Counted from the stretch's first letter, positions 11,593 to 63,904 are shown. The stretch: DNA of 64,000 nucleotides from Escherichia coli (GCF_022846255.1 NZ_AP025682.1); one strand, 5' to 3'. The notes: generated from the sequence alone by a model not told the origin. Numbers and translations: made by a program.

Positions 11593-12579
11593 GTGAACAG
11601 ACGTAATTTTATTAAAGCAGCCTCCTGCGGGGCATTGCTGACGGGCGCGCTGCCGTCTGTCAGTCATGCGGCTGCTGAAAACCGCCCGCCAATTCCGGGA
11701 TCGCTGGGGATGTTGTACGACTCGACCTTGTGCGTAGGCTGTCAGGCTTGCGTCACCAAGTGTCAGGATATCAACTTCCCTGAACGTAACCCGCAAGGGG
11801 AACAGACCTGGTCGAACAACGACAAACTGTCGCCGTATACCAATAACATCATTCAGGTGTGGACCAGCGGCACAGGGGTCAACAAAGACCAGGAGGAGAA
11901 TGGCTACGCGTACATTAAGAAACAGTGTATGCACTGCGTCGATCCGAACTGTGTCTCTGTGTGCCCGGTCTCTGCGCTGAAAAAAGATCCGAAAACCGGC
12001 ATTGTCCATTACGACAAAGATGTGTGCACCGGCTGCCGTTACTGCATGGTCGCCTGCCCATACAACGTGCCGAAGTACGACTACAACAACCCGTTTGGTG
12101 CGCTGCATAAGTGCGAGTTGTGCAACCAGAAAGGTGTGGAACGTCTCGATAAAGGCGGTCTGCCTGGCTGCGTAGAAGTGTGCCCGGCGGGCGCGGTGAT
12201 TTTTGGTACGCGTGAAGAGCTGATGGCGGAGGCGAAAAAACGTCTGGCGCTGAAGCCGGGCAGCGAATACCACTATCCGCGTCAGACGCTGAAATCTGGC
12301 GACACTTACCTGCATACGGTGCCGAAATATTATCCGCATCTGTACGGCGAGAAAGAGGGCGGCGGTACTCAGGTTCTGGTACTGACGGGTGTGCCTTATG
12401 AAAATCTCGACCTGCCGAAACTGGACGATCTTTCTACTGGTGCGCGTTCCGAACATGTCCAACACACCCTGTATAAAGGCATGATGCTACCACTGGCTGT
12501 GCTGGCGGGCTTAACCGTGCTGGTTCGTCGCAACACTAAAAACGACCATCACGACGGAGGAGACGATCATGAGTCATGA
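11593..12579 (+). CDS. hybA: Hydrogenase 2 4Fe-4S ferredoxin-type subunit, 328 aa
   Basis: GTG start; RRNF Tat motif; multiple CxxCxxCxxxCP ferredoxin motifs. Confidence 0.95.
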
Positions 12580-13747
12580 TCCACAACCGCTGGGCGGCAA
12601 AATCATCAGTAAACCGGTCATGATTTTTGGACCGTTAATCGTCATCTGTATGCTCCTGATTGTGAAGCGTCTGGTGTTCGGTCTGGGCTCTGTCTCCGAC
12701 CTGAACGGCGGCTTCCCGTGGGGCGTGTGGATCGCGTTTGACCTGCTGATCGGTACCGGCTTTGCCTGTGGCGGCTGGGCGCTGGCGTGGGCAGTATACG
12801 TCTTTAACCGTGGGCAATACCATCCGCTGGTGCGTCCGGCGCTGTTGGCGAGTCTGTTTGGTTATTCACTGGGTGGCTTGTCGATCACTATCGACGTGGG
12901 TCGCTACTGGAACCTGCCGTACTTCTACATTCCGGGTCACTTCAACGTGAACTCGGTACTGTTCGAGACGGCGGTCTGTATGACCATCTACATCGGTGTG
13001 ATGGCACTGGAGTTTGCTCCGGCATTGTTTGAACGTCTGGGCTGGAAGCTGTCACTCAAACGTCTGAACAAGGTGATGTTCTTTATCATCGCGCTTGGTG
13101 CGCTGCTGCCAACTATGCACCAGTCTTCAATGGGATCGCTGATGATCTCGGCGGGCTACAAGGTGCATCCGCTGTGGCAAAGCTATGAAATGTTGCCGCT
13201 GTTCTCGCTGCTGACGGCGTTCATCATGGGCTTCTCGATTGTCATCTTTGAAGGTTCGTTGGTGCAGGCGGGTCTGCGTGGCAACGGTCCGGATGAAAAG
13301 AGTCTGTTCGTTAAGCTGACCAACACCATCAGTGTGTTGCTGGCGATTTTCATCGTGCTGCGCTTTGGCGAGCTTATCTATCGCGACAAGCTGTCGTTAG
13401 CGTTTGCCGGTGACTTCTACTCCGTGATGTTCTGGATTGAAGTCCTGCTGATGCTCTTCCCGCTGGTCGTTCTGCGTGTGGCGAAGTTGCGTAATGATTC
13501 CCGCATGCTGTTCCTGTCAGCACTGAGTGCACTGTTAGGTTGTGCAACCTGGCGTCTGACCTATTCGCTGGTGGCATTCAACCCGGGTGGCGGTTACGCC
13601 TACTTCCCGACCTGGGAAGAACTGTTGATTTCTATTGGTTTTGTGGCTATTGAGATTTGCGCTTATATCGTACTCATTCGTCTACTGCCGATACTTCCTC
13701 CTTTAAAACAAAACGATCATAATCGTCATGAGGCGAGCAAAGCATGA
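12569..13747 (+). CDS. hybB: Hydrogenase 2 integral membrane (cytochrome b-type) subunit, 392 aa
   Basis: Polytopic hydrophobic protein; overlaps hybA stop by 11 nt. Confidence 0.93.
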
Positions 13748-15447
13748 GCCAGAGAATTACTATTGATCCGGTAACCCGTATTGAAGGGCATTTACGCATC
13801 GATTGCGAAATCGAAAATGGCGTCGTTTCGAAAGCATGGGCTTCCGGTACCATGTGGCGCGGCATGGAAGAGATCGTGAAAAACCGCGATCCGCGCGATG
13901 CATGGATGATTGTGCAACGTATCTGTGGCGTATGTACTACCACTCACGCGCTGTCTTCCGTTCGTGCGGCAGAAAGTGCGCTGAATATCGACGTTCCGGT
14001 TAACGCGCAATACATCCGTAACATCATTCTGGCTGCGCACACCACGCATGACCATATTGTTCATTTCTATCAGCTTTCGGCGCTGGACTGGGTGGACATC
14101 ACTTCTGCACTGCAAGCCGATCCGACCAAAGCCTCCGAAATGCTGAAAGGCGTTTCGACCTGGCATCTGAACAGCCCGGAAGAGTTCACCAAAGTTCAGA
14201 ACAAGATCAAAGATCTGGTTGCCAGCGGTCAGTTGGGTATTTTCGCCAATGGCTACTGGGGTCACCCGGCAATGAAACTGCCGCCGGAAGTGAACCTGAT
14301 TGCGGTAGCGCACTACCTGCAGGCGCTGGAGTGCCAGCGTGACGCTAACCGCGTTGTGGCGCTGCTGGGCGGTAAAACGCCGCATATTCAGAACCTGGCG
14401 GTAGGTGGTGTCGCGAACCCGATCAACCTCGACGGTCTGGGTGTGCTGAACCTTGAGCGCCTGATGTACATCAAGTCCTTCATCGACAAGCTGAGCGACT
14501 TTGTTGAGCAGGTTTACAAGGTTGATACTGCAGTTATCGCTGCGTTCTACCCGGAATGGCTGACGCGCGGTAAAGGTGCGGTGAACTACCTGAGCGTGCC
14601 GGAATTCCCGACCGACAGTAAAAATGGCAGCTTCCTGTTCCCGGGCGGCTACATTGAGAATGCGGATCTGTCCTCGTATCGTCCGATCACTTCTCATTCC
14701 GATGAATACCTGATCAAAGGGATTCAGGAAAGCGCGAAGCACTCCTGGTATAAAGACGAAGCGCCGCAGGCACCGTGGGAAGGTACCACCATTCCGGCTT
14801 ATGATGGTTGGTCTGACGACGGTAAATATTCCTGGGTGAAATCACCGACTTTCTACGGCAAAACGGTAGAAGTGGGTCCGCTGGCTAACATGCTGGTGAA
14901 ACTGGCGGCAGGACGCGAGTCTACCCAGAACAAACTGAATGAAATCGTTGCGATTTATCAGAAACTGACTGGCAACACGCTGGAAGTGGCGCAGCTGCAC
15001 TCCACGCTGGGCCGTATTATTGGTCGTACCGTTCACTGCTGTGAATTGCAGGATATCCTGCAAAATCAATACAGTGCACTGATCACCAATATCGGCAAAG
15101 GCGATCACACCACCTTTGTGAAGCCGAACATTCCGGCAACGGGTGAGTTCAAAGGCGTAGGCTTCCTCGAAGCACCGCGCGGTATGCTCTCTCACTGGAT
15201 GGTGATCAAAGACGGTATTATCAGTAACTACCAGGCGGTTGTTCCATCAACCTGGAACTCTGGCCCGCGTAACTTCAATGATGACGTCGGTCCTTACGAG
15301 CAGTCGCTGGTGGGTACACCGGTTGCCGATCCGAATAAACCGCTGGAAGTGGTGCGTACCATTCACTCCTTCGACCCGTGCATGGCCTGTGCGGTACACG
15401 TAGTGGATGCCGACGGCAACGAAGTGGTTTCAGTGAAGGTTCTGTAA
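13744..15447 (+). CDS. hybC: Hydrogenase 2 [NiFe] large subunit, 567 aa
   Basis: N-terminal RICGVCTTTH and C-terminal DPCMACAVH Ni-binding Cys motifs. Confidence 0.95.
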   Translation: MSQRITIDPVTRIEGHLRIDCEIENGVVSKAWASGTMWRGMEEIVKNRDPRDAWMIVQRICGVCTTTHALSSVRAAESALNIDVPVNAQYIRNIILAAHTTHDHIVHFYQLSALDWVDITSALQADPTKASEMLKGVSTWHLNSPEEFTKVQNKIKDLVASGQLGIFANGYWGHPAMKLPPEVNLIAVAHYLQALECQRDANRVVALLGGKTPHIQNLAVGGVANPINLDGLGVLNLERLMYIKSFIDKLSDFVEQVYKVDTAVIAAFYPEWLTRGKGAVNYLSVPEFPTDSKNGSFLFPGGYIENADLSSYRPITSHSDEYLIKGIQESAKHSWYKDEAPQAPWEGTTIPAYDGWSDDGKYSWVKSPTFYGKTVEVGPLANMLVKLAAGRESTQNKLNEIVAIYQKLTGNTLEVAQLHSTLGRIIGRTVHCCELQDILQNQYSALITNIGKGDHTTFVKPNIPATGEFKGVGFLEAPRGMLSHWMVIKDGIISNYQAVVPSTWNSGPRNFNDDVGPYEQSLVGTPVADPNKPLEVVRTIHSFDPCMACAVHVVDADGNEVVSVKVL

Positions 15448-17028: not shown

Positions 17029-17114
17029 TGTAGGCCTGATAAGACGCGGCAGCGTCGCATCAGGCATTGTGCTCGATTGCCGGATGCGGCGTGAACGCCT
17101 TATCCGGCCTACAT
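17029..17114. repeat. REP/BIME element (two inverted REP units)
   Basis: Classic REP sequences gccggatgcggcgtgaacgccttatccggcctac and taggcctgataagacgcggcagcgtcgcatcaggc. Confidence 0.85.
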
Positions 17115-60753: not shown

Positions 60754-61290
60754 ATGTTACGCGATAAATTTATTCACTATTTTCAGCAATGGCGTGAACG
60801 CCAGTTAAGCCGTGGCGAACACTGGCTAGCACAGCACCTGGCGGGGCGTTCGCCGCGTGAAAAAGGCATGTTACTGGCAGCGGTGGTGTTCCTGTTTAGC
60901 GTCGGATATTACGTCCTCATCTGGCAGCCGTTGAGCGAACGGATAGAACAACAGGAGACGATGTTGCAACAGCTGGTGGCGATGAACGCGCGACTGAAGA
61001 GCGCCGCGCCGGATATAATTGCAGCGCGAAAATCCGCCACGACAACGCCAGCACAGGTATCGCGGGTCATCAGTGACAGCGCTTCCGCGCACTCAGTGGT
61101 CATCAAGCGGATAGCCGAGCGCGGGGAGAATATTCAGGTCTGGATAGATCCGGTGGTGTTTAATGACCTGCTGAACTGGTTAAACGCGCTGGATGAAAAG
61201 TATGCGCTGCGGGTGACACAAATTGATGTCAGCGCAGGTGAGAAGCCTGGGATGGTGAATGTGCAGCGGCTGGAGTTTGGACGGGGGTAG
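60754..61290 (+). CDS. gspM: Type II secretion inner-membrane protein M, 178 aa
   Basis: Small bitopic protein following gspL; also known as yghD. Confidence 0.85.
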   Translation: MLRDKFIHYFQQWRERQLSRGEHWLAQHLAGRSPREKGMLLAAVVFLFSVGYYVLIWQPLSERIEQQETMLQQLVAMNARLKSAAPDIIAARKSATTTPAQVSRVISDSASAHSVVIKRIAERGENIQVWIDPVVFNDLLNWLNALDEKYALRVTQIDVSAGEKPGMVNVQRLEFGRG

Positions 61291-62060
61291 GTATTGCCAT
61301 TTCCTTAACCCCACCTGATAACCCTTAGCCCAAGGGTGAGTGCGGAACTGTCAAACCCGCTCACCGGGCTGAGTTCCGATGTAGCAAGATTTATCTCCCT
61401 CCAGAGCACCACGGAATGTTCGACAATACTGTAGGAATTCGTTTTTCACCATGTAGCCTTCGTTAATCTACACCTTTCTAAGACTGTAAAGATGCTTAAG
61501 TGTTTTGACACATTATGATTATTAATAGTTGTAATAAATCATTGAGTAACAATTGATAGGTCAAAACATATAGGATAATTCTTATGTGATCTGTATTTTG
61601 TGTAGCCTGGAAATTAGTAAAATTACTGGAGATAATCAGAAAGGGAATTTCAAATAAGCATAATAATTTCCAGGGAAACTATTCGTCGATTTTAAGAAAT
61701 GTCTGCTCAGGTATATCTACTGAGGGATGGTGTTGGTTGTAACGCTGGTTAAAATAAACACACAAAATAATCAGGATGTATATTTTAATCGACGAAAATA
61801 ATTACCTTCGGGATTATTGATGCGACTTAAATAACACCATTTAAACGTGATATAAATCACAAATATGGCTGTGAAGAGGGTGCTGTAGATATAAATAAGA
61901 AGTACATGAGTGAATTTTAAATAGGAAAATAGTTTCTCGCTAAACAATTTATTGGTAATCAATCGCATGCGTTCTGGTTTGAGACAGATTGCAGGTGTTG
62001 CTACGCATAAAATTCATAGGCGGTATTATAATCAAGTAGTTAACAGTAATAGTAAAAAAT

Positions 62061-62076
62061 AATTTCTTGCGAAATT
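62061..62076. repeat. Palindrome AATTTC-N4-GAAATT, copy 1, in kpsM leader
   Basis: aatttcttgcgaaatt read directly. Confidence 0.8.
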
Positions 62077-62176
62077 AGCGGCCCATTTTGAATAAGTGTG
62101 TTCCGGAGTAATCCAGAACGCATGCTGCTTTACGTCTTTTTCAAGCCATATTGGTTAAGCAAAAAGAGGTAGAAAT

Positions 62177-62192
62177 AATTTCCTGAGAAATT
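62177..62192. repeat. Palindrome AATTTC-N4-GAAATT, copy 2, in kpsM leader
   Basis: aatttcctgagaaatt read directly; preceded by gaaat as in copy 3. Confidence 0.8.
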
Positions 62193-62311
62193 AACTCTAC
62201 ATTCTGAAACGGCCAGTTTTCTGAAATTACCAGAAGACCGAATACATTCATGCCTGAAGAATGGATTAGAAGAAACGAGACGGAAATAGATCTATTTATC
62301 CCTGCGGAAAT

Positions 62312-62327
62312 AATTTCTGATGAAATT
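62312..62327. repeat. Palindrome AATTTC-N4-GAAATT, copy 3, in kpsM leader
   Basis: aatttctgatgaaatt read directly. Confidence 0.8.
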
Positions 62328-62422
62328 GTTTTCGGCTATTAAAAAGGTCAAACCGGCTGAGTGAATTTTATCCAGTTACAAATAAGCATTACCTCCAGTG
62401 TATTGGTAGCTGTTAAGCCAAG

Positions 62423-62434
62423 GGCGGTAGCGTA
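62423..62434 (+). promoter_or_regulatory. ops element (RfaH recruitment site, JUMPstart core) in kpsM leader
   Basis: GGCGGTAGCGTA, containing the 8-bp ops core GGCGGTAG, 32 bp upstream of kpsM ATG. Confidence 0.8.
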
Positions 62435-62462: not shown

Positions 62463-63239
62463 ATGGCAAGAAGTGGATTTGAAGTCCAGAAAGTCACCGT
62501 AGAGGCATTATTTCTACGAGAAATACGAACACGCTTTGGTAAGTTCCGTCTGGGATATTTGTGGGCGATTCTCGAACCCTCTGCGCATTTGCTGATACTG
62601 TTGGGCATTTTTGGTTACATTATGCACCGCACGATGCCAGACATCTCATTCCCGGTGTTTTTACTTAATGGCCTGATTCCCTTTTTTATCTTTAGCAGTA
62701 TCAGCAATCGTTCTGTAGGTGCTATTGAAGCGAATCAGGGGCTGTTTAATTATCGACCAGTAAAACCCATCGATACGATCATTGCGCGTGCATTGCTTGA
62801 GACACTGATTTACGTTGCTGTTTATATATTGCTTATGCTTATCGTCTGGATGGCAGGCGAATATTTCGAAATAACAAACTTTTTACAACTTGTGCTTACC
62901 TGGAGTTTGTTAATCATTCTTTCATGTGGCGTTGGCTTAATATTCATGGTCGTTGGTAAAACCTTCCCTGAAATGCAAAAGGTCCTGCCGATACTGCTTA
63001 AGCCGCTGTATTTCATCTCCTGCATCATGTTCCCTCTACACTCGATTCCGAAGCAATACTGGTCATATCTACTCTGGAACCCATTAGTGCATGTCGTAGA
63101 GTTAAGCCGCGAGGCAGTTATGCCTGGCTATATCAGCGAAGGCGTGAGTCTGAACTACCTTGCAATGTTCACTCTGGTCACCCTGTTCATCGGTCTGGCG
63201 TTATACCGAACGCGTGAAGAGGCAATGCTGACATCATGA
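62463..63239 (+). CDS. kpsM: Capsule polysaccharide export ABC transporter permease, 258 aa
   Basis: ORF-track 292 aa trimmed to MARSGFEVQKVTVEALFLREIRTRFGK (ABC-2 permease signature region); AT-rich codon usage. Confidence 0.9.
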   Translation: MARSGFEVQKVTVEALFLREIRTRFGKFRLGYLWAILEPSAHLLILLGIFGYIMHRTMPDISFPVFLLNGLIPFFIFSSISNRSVGAIEANQGLFNYRPVKPIDTIIARALLETLIYVAVYILLMLIVWMAGEYFEITNFLQLVLTWSLLIILSCGVGLIFMVVGKTFPEMQKVLPILLKPLYFISCIMFPLHSIPKQYWSYLLWNPLVHVVELSREAVMPGYISEGVSLNYLAMFTLVTLFIGLALYRTREEAMLTS

Positions 63240-63904
63240 TTAAGATTGAGAATTTGACGAAGTCATATCGCACGCCAACGGGTCGACATTATGTCTTTAA
63301 GGATTTAAACATCGAAATCCCTTCAGGAAAAAGTGTCGCCTTTATTGGTCGTAATGGTGCGGGTAAATCAACGTTACTGAGAATGATTGGTGGCATTGAC
63401 CGCCCCGATAGCGGAAAGATCATCACCAATAAAACGATATCATGGCCAGTCGGCCTTGCAGGTGGATTTCAGGGAAGTTTAACCGGACGCGAAAATGTAA
63501 AATTTGTCGCGAGGTTATACGCGAAGCAAGAAGAACTGAAAGAGAAAATTGAGTTTGTTGAAGAATTTGCCGAACTCGGTAAGTACTTCGATATGCCGAT
63601 TAAGACTTACTCATCTGGTATGCGATCGCGTTTAGGCTTTGGTTTAAGCATGGCATTTAAGTTTGATTATTATATCGTCGATGAAGTAACCGCAGTCGGT
63701 GATGCCAGGTTTAAAGAAAAATGCGCTCAATTGTTTAAAGAAAGGCATAAAGAATCTAGCTTTTTAATGGTTTCACATAGTTTGAATTCATTGAAAGAGT
63801 TTTGTGATGTGGCCATTGTGTTTAAAGATGATAATGCAGTTAGTTTTCATGAGGATGTTCAGGAGGGGATAGAGGAGTATCGTGTAAAACAAACCTGCAA
63901 ATAA
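63236..63904 (+). CDS. kpsT: Capsule polysaccharide export ABC transporter ATP-binding protein, 222 aa
   Basis: Walker A GRNGAGKST, ABC signature YSSGMRSRL, Walker B YYIVDE; overlaps kpsM stop. Confidence 0.92.
   Translation: MIKIENLTKSYRTPTGRHYVFKDLNIEIPSGKSVAFIGRNGAGKSTLLRMIGGIDRPDSGKIITNKTISWPVGLAGGFQGSLTGRENVKFVARLYAKQEELKEKIEFVEEFAELGKYFDMPIKTYSSGMRSRLGFGLSMAFKFDYYIVDEVTAVGDARFKEKCAQLFKERHKESSFLMVSHSLNSLKEFCDVAIVFKDDNAVSFHEDVQEGIEEYRVKQTCK

Follow-up and report, generated by a model that had tools for sequence, protein, structure and literature searches.

A six-copy array of putative operator dyads in the transcribed kpsM leader of Escherichia coli

The leader that serves kpsM and kpsT in the group 2 capsule cluster of Escherichia coli carries six evenly spaced copies of a short dyad-symmetric sequence. 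The best explanation for this array is that the six dyads are putative operators for a dimeric DNA-binding protein within the transcribed kpsMT leader, a reading to which we give slightly less than an even chance. The sites themselves are plainly present: They are periodic, they are specific to this leader, their arms are selectively constrained, and the 4-bp spacer that separates the arms is free to vary. From this pattern we infer that double-stranded DNA is the level at which the constraint operates, that a protein binds there, and that its binding would affect the transcription that reaches kpsM.

The window is the whole stretch of 64,000 nucleotides of E. coli DNA (NZ_AP025682.1) that was analyzed, and its end covers the point where the type II secretion operon of E. 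coli meets the group 2 capsule cluster. The yghD/gspM gene ends at 61290, and the gspM(yghD)-kpsM intergenic region is ∼1172 bp long with a G+C content of 36%. In K5, transcription from PR3 starts 741 bp upstream of the kpsM ATG, the promoter has a -10 element and lacks a -35 element, and the kpsM leader (UTR) is reported to moderate the transcription that reaches kpsM (PMC8960920). In EAEC 042, a CRP site lies ∼250 bp downstream of P1, at position -492.5 relative to the start of kpsM, and the -10 element (TATAAA) of a second promoter, P2, lies inside this site; the mutations P1 -13G and P2 245G were used in the same study (PMC12360894). Published distances and the mapping of alleles were carried over to the window to place the start of P1. 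The landmarks of the locus are as follows:

61594..61607, + strand: promoter P1 (PR3), with the -10 element TATTTT at 61594-61599 and a start at ∼61607 deduced from published distances
61845..61860, no strand assigned: CRP site with the embedded P2 -10 element, published for EAEC 042 (PMC12360894)
62396-62434, + strand: JUMPstart/ops element, the RfaH loading site (Rfam RF01707, 58.5 bits) and the 3′ boundary of the array
62463-63239, + strand: kpsM, with its ATG at 62463, served by the leader
63236-63904, + strand: kpsT, served by the leader

The array occupies the DNA downstream of the P1 start (∼61607) and upstream of the JUMPstart/ops element (62396-62434). All six dyads should lie within the P1 transcript, at ∼+56 to +724, because the published P1 position, when mapped onto the window, is upstream of every copy. 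Copies 3-6 probably lie within the P2 transcript as well. On the other side of the inferred P1 start, the sequence TTGATAGGTCAAAA at 61555-61568 contains an FNR-like left half-site whose center is ∼45 bp upstream of that start, and FNR binding to PR3 has been reported in the literature.

The original prediction described near-identical palindromes of the form AATTTC-N4-GAAATT (AATTTCNNNNGAAATT) at 62061, 62177, and 62312, plus a degenerate fourth copy near 61665. The first three sites are exact matches, the fourth is a match with one mismatch at 61665, and the gspM(yghD)-kpsM intergenic region is the only part of the window in which they occur. By chance, a 64-kb window should contain AATTTC-N4-GAAATT 0.28 times. 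When the AT-rich intergenic region alone is shuffled with its dinucleotides preserved, the expected number falls to 0.001, and none of 2000 such shuffles yields as many matches as observed, which confirms that the matches are not random relative to shuffles. The predicted spacings of 116 and 135 bp are likewise correct. A prefix GAAAT, thought to be shared by all three sites, precedes the copies at 62177 and 62312 but not the copy at 62061, which reads AAAATAATTTC.

The array is real, and the prediction understated its size. Counting the left 10-mer AAATAATTTC with at most one mismatch yields six members (61661, 61796, 61927, 62057, 62173, and 62308) rather than three plus a degenerate fourth; the expectation for this 10-mer is 0.24, and six copies were reached in 0 of 2000 shuffles. 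A repeat finder returned a 20-nt motif in six copies with these same starts. The full motif is a 22-bp quasi-palindrome with a 9-4-9 arrangement, AATAATTTC-N4-GAAATTATT, in which seven to nine of the nine positions are complementary in each copy. The 9-4-9 extent of the dyad, the three weaker copies, and a variation in copy number thus go beyond what had been predicted. All copies have the same orientation, and the dyads, which are listed without an assigned strand, are:

61662..61683: dyad copy 1, AATAATTTC-CAGG-GAAACTATT, 8 of 9 positions complementary
61797..61818: dyad copy 2, AATAATTAC-CTTC-GGGATTATT, 8 of 9 positions complementary including one T.G
61928..61949: dyad copy 3, AATAGTTTC-TCGC-TAAACAATT, the weakest copy, with G..C where the others have A..T
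62058..62079: dyad copy 4, AATAATTTC-TTGC-GAAATTAGC, with an exact 6-4-6 core, the first of the three sites predicted originally, present in six-copy alleles only
62174..62195: dyad copy 5, AATAATTTC-CTGA-GAAATTAAC, with an exact core, the second of those sites
62309..62330: dyad copy 6, AATAATTTC-TGAT-GAAATTGTT, with an exact core, the third of those sites

Successive dyads are 135, 131, 130, 116, and 135 bp apart. The five gaps have a coefficient of variation of 0.054, and the fraction of random six-point sets that are this regular is 1.9e-5. The intervals of 130-131 bp are not in helical phase, a point against the operator reading. The regularity of the array most likely derives from the ancient tandem duplication of a ∼130-bp module rather than from a functional need, and the dyad alone appears to have been retained since that duplication.

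We consider it quite improbable that the array is only a remnant of old tandem duplications, without a regulatory role today and with the microhomology-driven loss and gain of units as its sole consequence. The regular spacing and uniform orientation of the copies agree with such an origin, as do the in-register blocks shared by units 1-4: (G/A/T)ATAATCA(G/A) at -30, AATTTYAAAT at -15, and GAyTTtAAg at +27. Upstream in-register identity is also slightly raised (0.325 versus 0.276 ± 0.018), and most alleles lack a 116-bp unit whose deletion falls exactly between copies 4 and 5. However, neutral relics should decay along with their flanks, whereas the diversity of the arms is roughly half that of the leader around them, and the arms have been retained in six copies even though the remainder of each unit has decayed to background.

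Homology in the DNA between the motifs was sought with three approaches: TRF reported nothing, and MAFFT and local alignments remained at background save for one out-of-register 13-mer. A true tandem repeat finds no support in TRF or in these alignments of the inter-motif DNA, but units 1-4 do share the short in-register blocks given above. The exact 13-mer, TGAGTGAATTTTA, is present at 61907-61919 and again at 62358-62370, 451 bp apart and out of register with the dyads. Two other fragments resemble the 3′ boundary of the array. An ops-like fragment, GGCGGTAT at 62016-62023, matches 7 of 8 positions of ops, and a JUMPstart-like fragment, GTTAAGCAAAAAGAGGTAG at 62154-62172, resembles GTTAAGCCAAGGGCGGTAG at 62412-62430. 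These two fragments may be decayed duplicates. The idea that every unit carries a decayed JUMPstart/ops element was discarded, since the fragments are out of register and are missed by the Rfam covariance model.

The number of copies differs among alleles. Alignments define the variable segment as follows:

62057..62172, + strand: variable 116-bp unit (copy 4 plus spacer DNA), missing in most alleles

In UTI89 and most other alleles exactly 62057-62172 is missing, and the breakpoints are inside the 10-mer common to copies 4 and 5. A probe placed inside the variable unit (62077-62172) matches 418 genomes, compared with ∼1699 complete genomes that carry the leader. Among kps-positive E. coli, five copies are found in ∼75% and six copies in ∼25%. 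The record for Nissle 1917 (NZ_CP007799.1) has a different junction, in which an extra 10-mer is kept between copies 4 and 5. In the piece spanning 12484-15008 of this record, kpsT and kpsM come immediately after kpsS, and the region 2 (K5 kfi) genes are missing. This arrangement may be an assembly artifact, and the record was set aside.

The leader is present in 1699 of 5426 complete E. coli genomes; conservation of the dyads extends over more than 1,600 genomes of E. coli and to further species of Escherichia. A check proposed with the original prediction, conservation of the motif in other kps loci, therefore gives a divided result: The motif is conserved in Escherichia kps loci but not in the kpsM leaders of 35 loci from other genera. 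Specifically, among 38 loci encoding KpsM relatives (63-99% identity), the dyads occur only in the three from Escherichia (E. coli, E. whittamii, and Escherichia sp.), and no dyad array was found in the 35 kpsM leaders from Pantoea, Rahnella, Kluyvera, Yersinia, Citrobacter, and other genera. The ops element, 32-48 nt upstream of kpsM, is found in 32 of the 38 loci. In the other genera the kpsM intergenic regions are shorter, mostly 300-870 bp, and contain unrelated single palindromes. Several of these genera have one such palindrome ∼120-175 nt upstream of kpsM, roughly at the position of copy 6 in E. coli: TGCTGAAATATTCAGCA in Pantoea and Mixta, ACATCAAGGGAATGATGT in Kluyvera, Superficieibacter, and Pseudocitrobacter, and ACACATCTCAGATGTGT in Rahnella. 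Their position near that of copy 6 may be due to chance.

Searches beyond the leader point to the same restricted distribution. There are zero copies of the dyad in PR1, the promoter of kpsF, or anywhere else in the kps cluster of UTI89, and the core ATTTC-N4-GAAAT has zero matches in ∼196 kb of other E. coli DNA, so that no regulon members with the same motif were found across the kps cluster and these ∼196 kb. An operator shared by PR1 and PR3 was ruled out because PR1 lacks a copy. A scan of viral contigs gave single chance matches only, and a search of metagenomes for pairs of dyads separated by 95-125 bp recovered kps leaders of E. coli together with perfect repeats, tandem or coding, that are unrelated. 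Because neither the viral nor the metagenome scan gave further arrays, the array was judged to be neither a mobile or phage element nor part of a broader family. The array is specific to the Escherichia kps region 3 leader.

Sequence diversity within the leader was examined in an alignment of 25 distinct leader alleles drawn from complete genomes and gut metagenomes. Pairwise identity is 75-99% among the eight complete-genome or genome-contig alleles that were compared. Over the 25 alleles, nucleotide diversity (π) is 0.044 for the left 10-mer and 0.043 for the right 6-mer, versus 0.249 for the 4-bp spacer and 0.086 for the remaining leader. In a random-placement test, both the low diversity of the arms (P = 0.006) and the high diversity of the spacer (P = 0.0002) stand out. 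Per-position values of π (25 alleles) are 0.00-0.06 at positions 1-9, 0.14-0.33 in the spacer, 0.00-0.13 at positions 14-21, and 0.07-0.24 in the flanks. The constrained footprint thus consists of positions 1-9 plus 14-21, with sharp edges at 1 and 21, and the spacer is its most variable part. Both arms are about twice as conserved as the remaining leader and are under purifying selection. Constrained arms around a free spacer are the pattern sought for an operator, and the dyads show it. Copy 1 keeps an A/C mismatch in 24 of 25 alleles, and the Esc2 allele has a perfect core at this copy.

The CRP site in the kpsM leader was used as a positive control for this pattern of conservation. This site is backed by ChIP-seq, EMSA, and mutagenesis (PMC12360894). 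Its arms have π values of 0.03 and 0.00 and its spacer a value of 0.20, which is the same pattern as that of the dyads. Perfect TGTGA/TCACA arms surround a variable N6 in 24 of 25 alleles; the CRP dyad of the window allele, CGTGATATAAATCACA, has one arm mismatch.

Comparison among the six paralogous copies provides a second view of the constraint. The left arm matches AATAATTTC at 8-9 of 9 positions in all six, whereas the remainder of the unit has diverged beyond detection. This retention of arm sequence in six paralogs while the units diverged fits sequence-specific recognition and not mere pairing. In the majority allele, the left arm of each copy matches the consensus arm at 8-9 of 9 positions and the right arm at 5-8 of 9. 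Such asymmetric conservation of the arms counts against the operator model, because a symmetric dimer does not predict it.

Two further features of the leader were noted. The segment 62230-62300, between copies 5 and 6, is its most conserved block besides JUMPstart (π of 0.00-0.10 in 10-bp windows). A 31-codon ORF with its ATG at 62250 crosses copy 6, is frameshifted at its 3′ end in most alleles, and is probably noncoding. Small ORFs over copy 6 were dismissed as an explanation because their ends vary among alleles.

The original prediction named operators or a structured RNA leader as the two readings of the dyads. The first is supported by the operator-like pattern of arms and spacer; for the second, covariation is lacking and folding support is patchy. 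As RNA, the dyads would form hairpins in the 5′ untranslated leader with AU-rich stems of 6-9 bp and 4-nt loops, and these might influence pausing by RNA polymerase, the access of Rho, cleavage by RNase E, or the stability of the leader before RfaH is loaded at ops. We judge this to be unlikely. All six copies lie between P1 (∼61607) and ops and are thus transcribed into RNA, and the whole leader folds better than shuffles (z = -3.5, 20 shuffles). In the window allele, copy 6 folds with -13.5 kcal/mol (z = -3.95) and copy 5 with -9.7 kcal/mol (z = -3.25), and a stretch of 6-8 T follows copy 6 in common alleles. However, the extended stems of copies 5 and 6 are allele-specific, the cores by themselves give weak stems (copies 1, 3, and 4 alone: -1 to -3.6 kcal/mol), and copies 1-4 do not beat shuffles.

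Variation among alleles bears on the hairpins in a similarly mixed manner. Stem cells pair in 84% of cases, versus 29-53% when the partner is slid, and nine one-sided changes that preserve pairing are all to G.U. Approximately six pairs nevertheless carry disrupting changes, so that the excess of G.U is not significant, and there is no significant strand-specific signal. Compensatory changes are found in 0 of 54 pairs, with shuffles equal to the observed value, in a comparison whose power is limited by the low divergence of the alleles (75-99% identity). RNAalifold detects no covariation in the dyads; it pairs copies 1, 3, and 6 differently and keeps the copy's own hairpin only for copies 2 and 5. 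Pair probabilities computed for the full leader span 0 to 1 among copies and alleles: Copies 1 and 3 have values of ∼0, copy 5 has 0.1-0.25, and copy 6 of the Esc2 allele stays at 0.0 even though its core is perfect. Finally, the loop, which is the usual recognition surface of protein-bound hairpins, is the least conserved part of the dyad.

The dyads are conserved even where the full-leader RNA is predicted to form no hairpin (copies 1 and 3) or to form one with low probability (copy 5). The same arms are kept, the loop is free, and conservation is independent of predicted folding, a combination that fits a protein that binds double-stranded DNA better than it fits an RNA structure.

Other RNA features of the leader were also cataloged. 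An Rfam search with E-values up to 10 found only JUMPstart in the leader and nothing at the dyads, and a known RNA family was ruled out on this basis. Elsewhere in the window, Rfam models match C0719 sRNA (42356-42577), naRNA4 (17033-17109, both strands), and ES173 sRNA (379-442). An intrinsic terminator or attenuator was also rejected: A scan finds none, the stems contain A/U only, and a T run follows copy 6 only. A perfect 13-nt long-range inverted repeat, GCATGCGTTCTGG at 61965-61977 and CCAGAACGCATGC at 62113-62125, links unit 3 with the variable unit 4. Those allelic variants of it that were inspected are compatible with G.U pairing, and its right arm is absent from five-copy alleles. At the extreme 5′ end of the P1 transcript, CCTGGAAATTA (61606-61616) is complementary to TAATTTCCAGG (61664-61674), which is the left arm of copy 1. 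For this pairing 90% of cells pair, with a single compensatory change in one allele, and the result is not significant relative to shuffles.

Nucleoid proteins could account for the array with no dedicated regulator at all. According to this proposal, the dyads are preferred nucleation or positioning sites for H-NS (with SlyA, IHF, or StpA) and organize a temperature-dependent silencing filament or bridge over the leader; we regard it as distinctly unlikely. H-NS footprints at PR3 extend over -135..-21 and +141..+219, and repression at 20°C requires the downstream footprint (PMC8960920). If +1 is at ∼61607, the downstream footprint would correspond to 61747-61825 and would contain copy 2, whereas copy 1 (+56..+77) is outside both published footprints. 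The arms are 8-bp A/T runs in DNA with 36% G+C, and a perfect match, AATCAAGTAGTTA, to the IHF consensus (WATCAANNNNTTR) lies at 62030-62042, 15 bp before copy 4, and is retained in 22 of the 25 alleles. H-NS, however, requires no dyad symmetry, and its binding leaves unexplained the invariant C and G that border the spacer and the sharp edges of the constrained footprint. Furthermore, PR1 is likewise bound by H-NS and SlyA but lacks a copy. The dyad is also unlike the SlyA consensus TTAGCAAGCTAA and the H-NS motif tCGATAAATT.

Several candidate binders were considered under the operator reading. In the K1 strain RS218, YbdO shifts a 300-bp fragment upstream of kpsM, and the promoter region is enriched in ChIP-qPCR (PMC9141747). 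The YbdO-bound fragment contains copies 5 and 6. A YbdO/CitR (LysR-type) site is nevertheless not supported, because the even-spaced dyad misfits the T-N11-A box, which is centered on a base pair, and because the DNA upstream of K-12 citR (ybdO) and ybdN contains no similar dyad. A literature search for motifs of the TTTC-N4-GAAA type returned only eukaryotic STAT6 and Verrucomicrobia LexA and no E. coli regulator.

It is highly improbable that GAAAT-A-ATTTC, which makes up the left part of the motif, represents an IclR-type box. The IclR consensus, TGGAAATNATTTCCA, is a 15-bp palindrome (PMC8222616). By hand count, copy 5 (TAGAAATAATTTCCT) agrees with it at 12 of 14 positions and copy 6 at 11 of 14, but the G is present in only three of the six copies, and such a box would leave the conserved right arm unexplained. 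An IclR box was disfavored because it requires conserved outer positions, and here the outer positions of the left half-site (-1, 0) are unconstrained (π of 0.13-0.22).

If the dyads are operators, they would be bound at the DNA level by a sequence-specific protein, probably a dimeric one of the helix-turn-helix type. The sites, spread ∼130 bp apart between P1 and the ops/RfaH loading site of kpsMT, would allow the bound protein to modulate the P1 transcription that reaches kpsM, and in the case of copies 3-6 the P2 transcription as well. It might form a roadblock, bind sites cooperatively so as to loop the DNA between them, or remodel the nucleoprotein complex of H-NS and SlyA. A more ambitious version of this model, which is possible but doubtful, is that a regulator of Escherichia group 2 capsules acts on a five- or six-site operator array that covers the whole kpsMT leader. 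In this version, a higher-order nucleoprotein structure would set the P1/P2 transcription that reaches the RfaH loading site, and the loss or gain of a site would tune capsule expression between lineages.

For extra-intestinal E. coli, group 2 capsules such as K1 and K5 are virulence factors of central importance, and the array may explain how the leader tunes the expression of such a factor. In a leader of ∼750 nt that is known to moderate transcription, the array is a concrete element that can be mutated, and the dyad can serve as bait for finding a missing regulator. Alleles with five and six copies form a natural allelic series for comparing capsule expression. If instead the dyads prove inert, this would show that short palindromes can persist for other reasons in a silenced, horizontally acquired leader.

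Several known systems resemble the array in part. Operators of the FNR/CRP family (TTGAT-N4-ATCAA) have a 5-4-5 arrangement with half-site centers 9 bp apart, and their half-site length, spacing, and even symmetry match the dyad core ATTTC-N4-GAAAT. The FNR box, however, shares only one of five half-site bases with the dyad, whose arms extend to 9 bp, and members of this family are not known to read the dyad sequence. In looping systems such as gal OE/OI (113 bp apart), lac O1/O3, deo, and nag, one dyad is repeated at ∼90-135 bp, in some cases within transcribed DNA. These systems have two or three operators, whereas the array has five or six, and the phasing of the array is inconsistent (116 and 135 versus 130 and 131 bp). 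The CodY box of Firmicutes, AATTTTCWGAAAATT, has half-sites nearly identical to those of the dyad (AATTT(T)C / G(A)AAATT), but its spacing is 1 nt rather than 4 nt and CodY is absent from E. coli, and the likeness is one of resemblance only.

Three elements of the same leader offer closer points of reference in position. JUMPstart (RF01707) is a single 38-nt element conserved across genera, whereas the array, located farther upstream, occurs in Escherichia only and has an unrelated sequence. The downstream H-NS element of PR3 (+141..+219) overlaps copy 2 and has been linked to the moderation of transcription by the UTR, but it is an AT-rich region of ∼80 bp that is not described as a repeated dyad (Xue et al. 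2009, as summarized in PMC8960920), and the other five copies are outside the mapped footprints. As had been suspected in the original prediction, the array appears to be undescribed, to the extent that it is unmentioned in a 2022 review (PMC8960920) and in the 2025 CRP study (PMC12360894). The CRP site differs from the array in its sequence (TGTGA-N6-TCACA), in being a single copy with a known binder, and in its overlap with a promoter -10 element. It is alike in that it is a dyad in the transcribed leader downstream of P1 with invariant arms and a variable spacer, and it acts on DNA, where it moderates P1 and represses P2 (PMC12360894).
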